Origin: a virus
Length of the DNA stretch: 64,000 nt
Virus genome (UHGV): UHGV-1483955
Strand: one strand, 5' to 3'
In this document: one piece after another, positions 24,545 to 26,015 of the stretch
How the letters are laid out: each line of letters opens with the position of its first letter
Numbering within the stretch: the first letter of the stretch is position 1
Translations under genes and position numbers: made by a program
The notes under the pieces: model-generated
The model's database searches: none
What the model saw: only the letters and a program-made list of their open reading frames with translations
What the model was told of the DNA's origin: nothing

Positions 24545-24830
24545 CAATACCACTGCTTGATGAGAACCGCGCAAATGTTGACTATGCGCGAAGGTTAATT
24601 TGAATAGTTGACTATGCGCGATGTGACTACAGTCAAAAGTTGACTGTAGTCGATTTAACTCCACCAAAGATCGACTATGTAAGATATTGTCGGGAGAAAC
24701 GTTGACTATACGCGATGAAATGACCCTAAAAGCCATCTCAATAGCGACTTGCAGAATATTGACGCCAGCAAAAATCCACCAGCGTCAACGAATGTCGCCT
24801 ATAGTCAACTTCTCGCTATCGCATATAGTC
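24545..24830. repeat. incA-like iteron array downstream of repA
   Basis: About 8 copies in both orientations of a ~15-bp unit (GTTGACTATGCGCGA, GTTGACTGTAGTCGA, TCGCATATAGTCAAT and variants). Confidence 0.7.
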
Positions 24831-24834
24831 AATA

Positions 24835-25719
24835 TTATGGATTGCGCTTATGGATCTGGAAGCCGATTTTTCTGCCGTTTTTTATCTCTGAAAATTTAAG
24901 ATATTCAATAGCTTCCAAATCTTTCATGGCTTTTCTGATAACGCTATTTTGCACGCTAACGGATGATTTGAGATTAAGCCTTGCTCTAAGGCGCTCAATG
25001 CTGACAGGTGCCGGGTTGGCGGGTAGAGCCTCAAAGAATGTATACAGCACCTTGGCCGTCTCTTTGCGCCCGAGCTTATCCAGCATCTTCAGCTTCAGGA
25101 TTCGCTTATAGTCAACATAGTAAAGTTCAGATAGCTGTTTTTGCGGCTGGATCTCGATAACATCAAGCTCGGTATTCAGGCTGCTATATGCCAACAAGTT
25201 GACGTTAATGTTATTGAGATGACCTTTTGCCGCCGGGAAGCGGAATTTGACAACTGTCTGCTGAATGCGTGTCAGAGAGTCATCAATACTTTTACGGAAC
25301 GCCTTTGAAAGGCGCTTACGTGGATAGCCGCATCGATCGGCAAACTCGGAGAATGGCAGGGTGATTATGCCGTCATCATCAGGAGCATAGTCAAACAACG
25401 CGGAGGTTATGCCCACCCACACCTTAAAATCAGTATCCATATCCAGGCGTGGACCATGAATTTCAATTCCCTCATAGCCTTCCTGCTCAACAATTTTGAG
25501 GCTTGATAGTTCTTCGGTTGCGTTCGTTGTGTTTGTTGTAACTGACGATCCGCGACGTAGCGCCACATTGGTAGATTTTAAGGTTGGCACAAACACACCT
25601 AAGCGCAACAAAGCTATGGGTTGTATAGTGCTGTTGTTATTGGGCTTCAGGCTGTGGATTTCTCCTGTATTTCCTGCAACTTCTTCAACGCTAAGGAAGC
25701 CTTTACTTTCTTCCGGCAT
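24835..25719 (-). CDS. repA: RepA plasmid replication initiator
   Basis: 294-aa ORF flanked on both sides by iteron arrays; motif GPRLDMDTDFKVWVGI typical of iteron-binding RepA proteins. Confidence 0.8.
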   Translation of the reverse strand: MPEESKGFLSVEEVAGNTGEIHSLKPNNNSTIQPIALLRLGVFVPTLKSTNVALRRGSSVTTNTTNATEELSSLKIVEQEGYEGIEIHGPRLDMDTDFKVWVGITSALFDYAPDDDGIITLPFSEFADRCGYPRKRLSKAFRKSIDDSLTRIQQTVVKFRFPAAKGHLNNINVNLLAYSSLNTELDVIEIQPQKQLSELYYVDYKRILKLKMLDKLGRKETAKVLYTFFEALPANPAPVSIERLRARLNLKSSVSVQNSVIRKAMKDLEAIEYLKFSEIKNGRKIGFQIHKRNP

Positions 25720-25789
25720 CGTGGTTTCTCCATGTGTGGCGCGGCCTGGCGTTAATTTAGATGACTGTTATCAACAGCTGTGAATATTC

Positions 25790-25900
25790 AGGCTCTAAAA
25801 TCGCGTACAGTCAACGTTTCTGTCGCGTATAGTCAACAATAAATCGCGTGCAGTCAACATAAAATCGCACACAGTCAACATAAAATCGCGTATAGTCAAT
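25790..25900. repeat. incC-like iterons upstream of repA
   Basis: Five direct copies of AAATCGCGTATAGTCAACA-like units. Confidence 0.7.
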
Positions 25901-26015
25901 GTTGATCCCGTTTCAGGCCACGAACGGCGCGGCTTACAGCGATCCGGGATCTTCTTTGGATCTTCCTAGGTTCTCTTTGGGATCTGTTTATTGGATCTAT
26001 GCTGTGGATAAGTTG
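25900..26015. promoter_or_regulatory. plasmid origin (oriR-like): GATC cluster plus DnaA box
   Basis: Six GATC sites within ~95 bp (GGATCTT heptamer-like repeats) and TGTGGATAA (DnaA box, reverse) at ~26004-26012. Confidence 0.6.

Follow-up and report, generated by a model that had tools for sequence, protein, structure and literature searches.

Replicon Types of P1-Like Phage-Plasmids

The p0111 replicon type, whose PlasmidFinder reference is pO111_2 from E. coli O111:H- 11128 (AP010962 / NC_013370), is a long-standing PlasmidFinder entry, and the phages RCS47 (2014), SJ46 (2017), and JL22 (2022) have reportedly been described with a replicon of this type. P1-like phage-plasmids are split into two replicon types, IncY and p0111 (PMC9603915, PMC11165635). 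The latter, for which AP010962 (pO111_2) is the named reference (PMC11165635), is kept apart from IncY in typing schemes and surveys (PMC9603915, PMC11165635, PMC5241659); SJ46, whose RepA shares 42% identity with that of P1, was untypeable by PCR replicon typing (PMC5241659). The IncY replicon of P1 and P7 is organized as oriR-incC, repA, and incA. It contains five origin iterons at 21-22 bp, five GATC sites, two tandem DnaA boxes, and a control array of 6+3 iterons at ~31 bp in two orientations, of which incA copy 9 abuts the repA stop codon. An iteron map of the p0111 replicon is apparently unpublished in the open literature searched: the word “iteron” has 0 occurrences in the two p0111 survey papers, and a literature search found no footprint or mini-replicon study of this type. 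Such a map would allow mini-replicons to be built and tested directly.

Identity of the Replicon

The locus spans positions 24545-26015 of a 64,000-nucleotide stretch of the virus genome UHGV-1483955 (hereafter, the window). It is very probably the replicon by which a P1-like phage-plasmid (Punavirus) is maintained as a low-copy plasmid prophage, and it belongs to the p0111 type and not to the IncY type of P1/P7. Its features are the following:

24574-24718, minus strand: control (incA-like) iterons, distal block, starting at 24574, 24604, 24636, 24667 (weak), and 24698
24772-24836, plus strand: control iterons, proximal block, starting at 24772 (weak), 24792, and 24816
24835-25719, minus strand: repA, encoding a 294-aa Rep_3 (WH1-WH2) initiator (Pfam Rep3_C, Rep3_N; P1/P7 homology)
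25099-25119, plus strand: full-length iteron embedded in repA, codons 201-207 (YVDYKRI), in the orientation of the origin iterons
25768-25776, plus strand: DnaA-box-like site TTATCAACA (8/9 match), between the iterons and the repA start
25798-25903, plus strand: five origin (incC-like) iterons, starting at 25798, 25820, 25841, 25862, and 25883
25904-25997, strand not applicable: six GATC (Dam) sites, at 25904, 25941, 25948, 25959, 25981, and 25994
26003-26011, minus strand: perfect DnaA box, TTATCCACA on that strand

RepA is identical to the RepB-family protein of pO111_2 (NC_013370) in 292 of 294 residues, 100% identical to RepA of RCS47, and 99.7% identical to those of SJ46 and JL22. The closest phage matches of the replicon DNA are likewise the Punavirus genomes RCS47, SJ46, and JL22, with 99.4% identity to RCS47 over 1.7 kb. 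Together with pO111_2 and phi456, these are the closest known systems, all of p0111 type. They differ from the window by only 1-3 bases in the control-iteron region, share its parA-...-upfA context and a T5orf172 ORF next to the replicon, and show no difference of substance, except that pO111_2 carries this ORF as two shorter ones. The P1-like phage-plasmid backbone is evident from both the flanks of the locus and the best phage matches. The type is already catalogued and not new, being present in 415 of 5,426 complete E. coli genomes (~8%), nearly always on plasmids of ~90-100 kb; a related-locus search of representative genomes returned one identical copy only. As a discovery the locus has little weight, and its value is that of a worked example.

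RepA has the two winged-helix domains (WH1+WH2) of the Rep_3 initiators of P1/RepFIB-class theta replicons. The Rep3_C domain scores above the Pfam cut-off (27.3 bits vs 21.1), and Rep3_N just below it (22.0 vs 22.4), where P1 RepA is comparably marginal. NCBIfam assigned no family to RepA or to the T5orf172 ORF, and a PDB sequence search gave no solved relative of RepA. Over 272 aa, RepA is 42% identical and 60% similar to P1/P7 RepA (E = 9e-71). The initial annotation had called it only distantly similar to P1 RepA; by this alignment, the two proteins are clearly homologous and moderately diverged.

Iteron Arrays on Both Sides of repA

As had been proposed, repA is enclosed by two iteron sets, one in the origin (25798-25903) and one in the control region (24574-24836). 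The five origin iterons form a tandem array near the repA start, all in the same orientation and spaced by 22/21/21/21 bp, i.e., two helical turns; on the repA-sense strand, each reads ATGTTGACT... and includes a -35-like TTGACT. In the control region, the distal block is spaced by 30/32/31/31 bp and runs opposite to the origin iterons, while the last proximal iteron, 24816, abuts the repA stop codon. This second array outside the origin is conserved in a related replicon of E. coli and E. marmotae phage-plasmids (the sister replicon, described below).

Both arrays exceed chance expectation. Allowing ≤3 mismatches, the 14-mer CGCGTATAGTCAAC has 17 matches in the window against 4.0 expected, a number reached by 0 of 100 shuffles, and 12 of the 17 fall in 24577-25900. 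A weight matrix derived from the five copies in the origin, with 50 shuffles as the control, gave 12 sites scoring 17.9-29.8 in 24574-25903, compared with ≤13.1 elsewhere in the window and a best shuffle score of 19.0. Sites 24667 and 24772 score only ~10 and were accepted as iterons solely on the basis of their register and their conservation in the sister replicon, where 24772, the variant TTGACGCTGGTGGAT, is also found.

The iteron consensus of the window, AAATCGCGTATAGTCAACATA (written as ATGTTGACTATACGCGATTT in the comparison with P1), differs from the P1 iteron GATGTGTGCTGGAGGGAAA, taken here from the annotated P1 record. That record agrees with the 19-bp P1 sequence given in the initial annotation, and the difference between the two repeats was correctly recognized there; the length of the window iteron, previously given as 16 bp, is revised to ~19-21 bp.

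Origin and Proposed Mode of Replication Control

The six GATC sites and the DnaA box noted in the origin were both confirmed. Six GATC sites within 94 bp compare with 0.37 expected from the density in the window (P ~3e-6). Five of them are positional homologues of the five in P1 oriR, and the sixth, additional one abuts the outermost iteron. The box TGTGGATAA at 26003-26011, one of only two perfect DnaA boxes in the 64 kb, completes the combination of DnaA box and Dam-site cluster typical of P1/RepFIB-class origins. The 8/9 match at 25768-25776 is not significant alone; at the corresponding position of the sister replicon, there is a perfect TGTGGATAA of like orientation. A simple sigma-70 consensus scan detected no convincing repA promoter among the origin iterons, and inspection by eye found only weak -10 candidates to accompany the -35-like TTGACT of each iteron.

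By homology with P1, RepA monomers would bind the five iterons at 25798-25903 on the same face of the DNA. RepA and host DnaA, the latter acting at 26003-26011 and probably at the weaker box 25768-25776, would then open the adjacent GATC-rich segment, which, as in P1, should function only when fully Dam-methylated and be sequestered in the hemimethylated state. A repA promoter located in or beside the origin iterons would allow RepA to repress its own gene; since the scan found no good candidate, autorepression by promoter occlusion is proposed here from the P1 precedent. The ~8 downstream iterons (24574-24836) may limit the copy number by RepA titration and by RepA-bridged handcuffing with the origin iterons, and the copy inside repA may add to this control.

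Comparison with the P1/P7 IncY Replicon

The P1-type logic suggested for this locus is borne out: it has a homologous initiator gene, five origin iterons at comparable spacing, a control array in two orientations (5+3 iterons, two of them weak, against 6+3 in P1, with the same spacings and orientations), a Dam-site cluster, and a DnaA box. The control iteron at the repA stop codon is placed as in P1, the GATC/DnaA segment is 71% identical to P1 oriR with five positionally equivalent GATC sites, and both replicons occupy the same slot between parA and upfA. Yet, the specificity determinants are not those of P1, given the different iterons and the 42% identity of RepA, and further differences are present. 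The window has one perfect outer DnaA box, whereas P1 has two in tandem, and it has a sixth GATC site, an iteron inside repA, and a T5orf172 ORF between the control array and parA, none of which occurs in P1.

The shared genome position, gene order, and array layout, together with flanks 95-99% identical to P1, might suggest an ordinary P1/P7 IncY replicon that has diverged by point mutation. However, RepA is far from near-identical to P1 RepA (K02380), the 19-bp iteron GATGTGTGCTGGAGGGAAA of P1 incC and incA is not the repeat of the window, and the iterons agree with those of P1 at only ~9/19 positions. Plasmid records contain no intermediate RepAs, identities being either at least 80% (398 records) or below 60%, and the homology to P1 falls abruptly from 99.4% to nothing at 23666 before returning at ~26012. 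RepA identity, the missing intermediates, the abrupt junction, and the iteron sequence refute divergence by point mutation, to which we assign almost no probability. The high identity of iterons and RepA to P1 IncY that would have contradicted the initial annotation was not found.

A Replicon Cassette Exchanged Between Conserved P1 Flanks

A cassette of ~2.3 kb (23667-26011) stands in place of P1 incA-repA-oriR. Its left portion contains two further features:

23667-23732, minus strand: left cassette junction, with a terminator-like hairpin (23711-23725) behind the T5orf172 ORF
23733-24542, minus strand: T5orf172 / GIY-YIG-like ORF, 269 aa (Pfam T5orf172, E = 6.9e-6)

The left flank is 99.4% identical to P1 at the nucleotide level over 19351-23666, where homology stops just past the par promoter. 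The right flank is 96.3% identical over 25926-28500, and 95.2% in the first 189 bp past the DnaA box, which marks the right end of the cassette or lies close to it. A junction inside oriR at the blastn breakpoint 25926, which would join the GATC/DnaA half of P1 to foreign iterons, was considered and rejected: the segment in question shares 85% identity with the sister replicon and only 71% with P1, to which an identity of ≥95% is regained only from ~26012. The breakpoint is misleading because the alignment ran on through ancestrally conserved origin sequence. The oriR-repA-incA unit is exchanged as a single cassette, while the partition and immunity functions of P1 stay put.

The T5orf172 ORF travels with the cassette and has no P1 counterpart. 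It matches phrog_2876 and, weakly, an endonuclease PHROG, and PADLOC reported no defence-system match for it. Its location exactly at the cassette edge raises the question of a homing-type selfish cassette: P1-type alleles without the ORF would be cleaved by its putative T5orf172/GIY-YIG-like nuclease, and in the course of repair the ORF would be copied, along with the p0111 replicon, into IncY-type P1 relatives. The ORF is indeed co-extensive with this repA, occurring in the same 12/12 phage records and, at ≥80% identity, in 401 plasmid records against 398 for RepA, 396 of them at ≥90%; moreover, 17 replicon-type switches have been inferred from a published tree of Salmonella P1-like elements (PMC11165635). 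However, linkage across 0.3 kb is expected regardless, and ordinary homologous recombination in flanks of 95-99% identity accounts for the switches without a nuclease. The p0111 replicon also persists in pO111_2 despite the split ORF, and the sister replicon exists without it. Finally, the domain match is weak (E = 6.9e-6) and the nuclease function putative; we know of no nuclease activity or target of this ORF. Homing appears very improbable compared with the plain exchange of a p0111 cassette.

Sister, RepFIB-Type, and Providencia Replicons

The sister replicon is carried by ~90-94 kb E. coli / E. marmotae phage-plasmids, e.g., NZ_CP085065, and corresponds to MOB-suite rep_cluster_2164. Its RepA is 85% identical to that of the window at the amino acid level (75% at the nucleotide level), and its iterons, ATGTTGACTATGTGCGATTTA, are of the same family. 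The order of elements is also the same: a DnaA box, a GATC cluster (85% identical), five iterons, repA, and 2+1 and 4 control iterons, with an intragenic iteron shared between the two. It differs in having a perfect DnaA box between the iterons and repA, and it sits in a tail-gene/transglycosylase cluster, not beside parAB. Since the same anatomy recurs in a different genomic context, the replicon layout is conserved as a unit.

More distant relatives belong to the same Rep_3 / “RepB family” initiator class: RepFIB-type proteins of IncFIB plasmids and SSU5-like phage-plasmids are 45-49% identical to the window RepA (45-47% for the E. coli IncFIB-/SSU5-type proteins), and the rep product of Providencia/Proteus pPROV083-1 is 53.5% identical. 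Like the window, these replicons have iterons on both sides of rep, but the repeats themselves and the design of the arrays are different. TGTTGA...CGATTTT is common to the iteron of the window and the Providencia iteron GTTGATGCTAGACGATTTT; the Providencia control array, unlike that of the window, repeats a 43-bp unit at least 11 times.

Several GenBank records label this protein “RepFIB replication protein A”, and MOB-suite labels several “IncHI1B”, as if a RepFIB (IncFIB) or IncHI1B replicon had been captured from a conjugative plasmid. RepA is marginally nearer to the RepFIB/SSU5-type proteins than to P1 RepA (42%), and the window and RepFIB iterons have a TGACTAyAG core in common. Yet, 45-49% identity is far under any typing threshold, and the RepFIB iteron CTGACTACAGCTTATAT differs from that of the window. 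In addition, the origin half with the GATC sites and the DnaA box is homologous to that of P1, and the high-identity cluster consists mostly of non-mobilizable records of phage-plasmid size (~90-100 kb among those listed), a minority being typed as mobilizable or conjugative. Capture from a conjugative plasmid is accordingly a most improbable origin, slightly more so than homing.

Partition Module and Incompatibility

Directly beyond the cassette, the window retains the partition module of P1:

21263-21345, minus strand: parS centromere, with all ParB boxA/boxB motifs identical to the annotated P1 parS
21350-22351, minus strand: parB, P1 type, ParB 100% identical
22368-23564, minus strand: parA, P1 type, ParA with one substitution

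The few substitutions in parS relative to P1 lie in the IHF spacer. The parS/partition module is incB, the third incompatibility determinant of P1, and the window contains both the P1-type parS boxes and ParB. The proposal that the element belongs to an incompatibility group other than that of P1 is, consequently, only partly supported. Judged from sequence, it holds only for replication control, where cross-talk with P1 would be unlikely because the iterons differ; for the element as a whole it is not fully supported, the P1 partition system being retained.

Among 5,426 complete E. coli genomes, the p0111 type was found in 415, the IncY type in 361, and either in 774, so that ~2 genomes contain both, versus 27.6 expected by chance; derived from the union of a concatenated query, this number is a count and does not identify the genomes. 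Whole elements of p0111 and IncY type behave as near-mutually exclusive. This is indirect evidence on co-maintenance with P1, and the shared parS and a probable shared phage immunity could explain the exclusion without replicon cross-talk. A differing replicon type does not imply co-residence, as the two are very rarely found in one cell among complete genomes. This matters for the interpretation of replicon typing in resistance surveillance, since P1-like elements carry ESBL genes. In the searchable literature we found no experimental incompatibility test for p0111, although the two types have been said to be theoretically compatible (“can theoretically be compatible”, PMC11165635).

An Iteron Inside repA

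Beyond the arrays noted in the initial annotation, a further full-length iteron lies within repA itself (25099-25119). It has one mismatch to the 14-mer core, for which we estimate ~0.02 matches of this quality in the window, and a weight-matrix score of 19.5. The sister repA, 75% identical in nucleotide sequence, has the same codon at all five core positions. Only 47% of the same-amino-acid codons are identical between the two genes, giving 0.47^5 = 0.02 for the five, and the flanks of the site show synonymous changes in 8/11 codons. The TCG of the iteron comes from a CGA codon, a rare Arg codon. The site is invariant in five sequences; the metagenome RepA variants of 90% and 94% identity (L013 and L014) match the window around it and offer no independent test.

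The site may be functional in RepA binding and maintained by DNA-level selection, which would provide a control input absent from P1, although we regard this as possible rather than probable. If so, RepA bound within its own gene could obstruct repA transcription, or the site could serve as a ninth one for handcuffing or titration. The Providencia rep ORF (53% identical) independently carries a perfect 16-nt iteron core, at another codon position and in the opposite orientation.

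Overall organization of the replicon

The window belongs to a P1-like phage-plasmid and contains a complete plasmid replicon, on the minus strand, within 24545–26015. The replicon comprises the following elements, with an adjoining ORF.

Features of the replicon region
23733–24542, minus strand: T5orf172/GIY-YIG-like ORF (269 aa), between parA and the control iterons
24574, 24604, 24636, 24667 (weak) and 24698: distal control iterons, spacing ~31 bp, orientation opposite to that of the proximal group
24772 (weak), 24792 and 24816: control iterons proximal to repA, in one orientation
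24835–25719, minus strand: repA (294 aa)
25099–25119: full-length iteron inside repA, codons 201–207 (YVDYKRI)
25798, 25820, 25841, 25862 and 25883: starts of the five origin iterons, direct repeats with 22/21/21/21 bp spacing
25904–25997: six GATC sites, origin side
26003–26011: perfect DnaA box, TGTGGATAA, origin side

Iterons on both sides of repA, six GATC sites, and a DnaA box, as listed in the initial annotation, are all present. On the repA-sense strand the iteron reads (T)ATGTTGACTATACGCGATTT, and TTGACT occurs in every origin iteron. The control array is a second iteron set, in two orientations, located 3′ of repA; its member at 24816 adjoins the repA stop codon. Between the origin iterons and repA lies a DnaA-box-like site (25768–25776, 8/9 match), which is overlapped by a short palindrome, CTGTTGATAACAG (25762–25780), that could be an operator or simply this DnaA site.

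These elements exceed chance. The 14-mer iteron core, with up to three mismatches allowed, has 17 matches in the window against 4.0 expected, a number attained in none of 100 shuffles, and 12 of the 17 fall within 24577–25900. With a weight matrix built from the five origin copies only, the control copies score 17.9–23.1, and the rest of the 64 kb reaches at most 13.1. The six GATC sites occupy 94 bp, where 0.37 would be expected (P ~3e-6), and the box at 26003–26011 is one of two perfect DnaA boxes in the window. The scores of the weak control sites at 24667 and 24772 are not significant; the former is exactly in the 31-bp register, and the latter, TTGACGCTGGTGGAT, has a near-unchanged counterpart at the same position in a diverged sister replicon (e.g., NZ_CP085065).

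Comparison with P1

The layout is close to that of P1. P1 has five origin iterons spaced by 21–22 bp, the same number and spacing as in the window, and its control iterons (6 + 3, ~31 bp) likewise run in both directions, with the final copy abutting the repA stop codon. P1 carries five Dam sites plus DnaA boxes; the corresponding GATC/DnaA segment of the window is 71% identical, with five GATC sites positionally equivalent. P1 has two tandem outer DnaA boxes, whereas the window has one perfect box, as does the sister replicon. Relative to the P1 locus (L004, 5892–5909), the window at 26003–26020 is without nine bases bearing the second box.

The iteron and RepA, on the other hand, have diverged. 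The 14 annotated P1 iterons are GATGTGTGCTGGAGGGAAA with variants, which confirms the P1 unit given in the initial annotation; aligned in matching orientation and register, they agree with the window iteron at only ~9 of 19 positions. RepA is 42% identical to P1/P7 RepA (60% similarity, 272 aa, E = 9e-71). Rep_3 WH1/WH2 Pfam domains were detected with marginal scores in both proteins. Given this conserved layout and divergent iteron and RepA, P1-type logic with a different specificity is a fair label.

By homology with P1, RepA would bind the five origin iterons and, together with DnaA, open the GATC-rich segment, whose methylation state should gate re-initiation. RepA at the origin iterons would also repress repA; a consensus scan found no repA promoter, and a convincing −10 element was not identified. 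The downstream array would cap copy number via titration and handcuffing. Both RepA proteins share an N-terminal RLGVFVP motif; in P1 RepA this stretch presumably belongs to the DnaK-binding segment, in which case activation by chaperones is plausible.

Extent of the cassette

Around the replicon the P1 gene order is kept (gp23, parS, parB, parA, upfA, mlp, ppfA, upfB, upfC, uhr, hrdC, dmt). DNA identity to P1 (NC_005856) is 99.4% over 19351–23666 and 96.3% over the alignment 25926–28500. P1 homology ends at 23666, just beyond the par promoter/operator. A junction inside oriR, at the blastn restart at 25926, was rejected: the segment 25904–26015 is 71% identical to P1 and 85% to the sister replicon, and identity of at least 95% to P1 returns only at ~26012. 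These identities place the cassette at ~23667–26011, i.e., ~2.35 kb in place of ~1.6 kb of P1. Its order is a terminator-like hairpin, the T5orf172 ORF, control iterons, repA, origin iterons, GATC cluster, and DnaA box; oriR–repA–incA is exchanged as a whole unit. The GC content (0.458) is not distinct from that of the flanks.

The T5orf172 ORF travels with the p0111-type repA: the 12 phage records that carry one also carry the other, and 401 plasmid records have the ORF versus 398 with RepA at an identity of at least 80%. Since the ORF is in two pieces in pO111_2 (L012, 2697–3506) and the sister replicon lacks it, replication does not need it. PADLOC and NCBIfam gave no match for it, and in phi456 it is labelled “terminase small subunit”.

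Identity as p0111 and relatives

The replicon is already catalogued as the p0111 type and, since this type is well known, its novelty is low. Over the 1.7 kb surrounding repA, identity is 99.4% to RCS47 and 97–98% to SJ46, JL22, phi456, and others; this stretch matches 645 plasmid records, full-length at up to 99.9% identity. RepA is 100% identical to that of RCS47 and matches Rep of pO111_2 (E. coli O111:H- 11128) at 292/294 residues; the accession of this plasmid, AP010962, is named the “p0111” reference (PMC11165635). P1-like phage-plasmids fall into two replicon types, IncY (31/55) and p0111 (24/55), and JL22 is described as P1 with repA′ (p0111) and an unknown ORF in place of repA (PMC9603915). 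SJ46 RepA also shares 42% with P1 RepA, and PCR replicon typing of SJ46 gives no type (PMC5241659). The initial observation is correct and its interpretation largely so; the anatomy map, cassette limits, sister replicon, embedded iteron, and co-residence deficit are incremental additions.

Database labels are inconsistent and misleading, including “RepFIB replication protein A”, “replication helicase”, and the MOB-suite “IncHI1B” (NZ_CP019188, L003; phage records). These labels are misnomers: RepFIB/SSU5-type proteins are just 45–49% identical and their iteron differs.

A RepA search of 5.8 billion proteins returned a compact group at 99% and rare variants at 85–94%; below these comes a gap, followed by Providencia/Proteus (53%) and RepFIB-type proteins (44–49%). 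The 85% variant (75% nt) belongs to ~90–94 kb E. coli/E. marmotae phage-plasmids, in a tail and transglycosylase gene setting. This sister replicon (L008, 3200–4620; L010, NZ_CP085065 68222–88106; MOB-suite rep_cluster_2164) has the same anatomy and iteron family, and a perfect DnaA box between iterons and repA, compared with the 8/9 match in the window. A related iteron, GTTGATGCTAGACGATTTT, occurs in the Providencia replicon, whose plasmid pPROV083-1 carries a downstream array (L005, 2267–2980) of at least 11 units of 43 bp, each with two alternating iteron variants, and a second iteron block (860–964) ~250 bp upstream of the origin iterons, beyond DnaA-box-like sequences.

Incompatibility and partition

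ParB is 100% identical to that of P1, ParA differs by one residue, and all parS boxA/boxB motifs are identical; this partition module is the incB determinant of P1. In parS (21263–21345), the spacer holding the IHF site has several substitutions relative to P1 (TAGATGGATTTAC against TAGAGTAATTTAC; CAGTAGGTTAA against CAGTCAGTTAA). [quoted passage not shown] In the RCS47 record, parA/parB lengths equal those of P1 (window 21350–23564; L001 951–3165), and by blastn the RCS47 and P1 loci are 99.4–99.6% identical over the par region.

Because the incA and incC equivalents differ from those of P1, replicon-level compatibility with P1 is plausible. The two types are called “theoretically compatible”, no more than that (PMC11165635), and no published experiment on p0111-versus-P1 compatibility was found in the literature searched. 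The p0111-type replicon occurred in 415 and the IncY type in 361 of 5,426 complete E. coli genomes; a concatenated query gave a union of 774, so ~2 genomes carry both, versus 27.6 expected under independence (Poisson P ~4e-10), a count that weak matches blur by one or two and a depletion that population structure could inflate. The trend itself is clear, P1-like elements of the two kinds being seldom found together; a common par and, probably, common phage immunity are the likely reasons. The assignment to an incompatibility group other than that of P1 is therefore only partly supported: it agrees with the differing incA/incC equivalents, but the P1 par is kept and co-residence is rare.

An iteron inside repA

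The iteron at 25099–25119 departs from the 14-mer core at a single base and scores 19.5 with the weight matrix; no such site was found in P1 repA or in one RepFIB gene. Its five core codons (GTT GAC TAT AAG CGA) are all identical in the sister gene (75% nt), although, at positions encoding the same amino acid, just 47% of codons match between the two across the gene (0.47^5 = 0.02) and 8 of 11 flanking codons have synonymous changes. The Providencia rep (53%) also contains a perfect 16-nt iteron core in its ORF (L005, 1899–1919), at another codon position and pointing the other way. Together, the codon identity and the Providencia in-ORF iteron suggest, as a modest lead, that selection acts on the DNA itself to keep a RepA site within the initiator gene.
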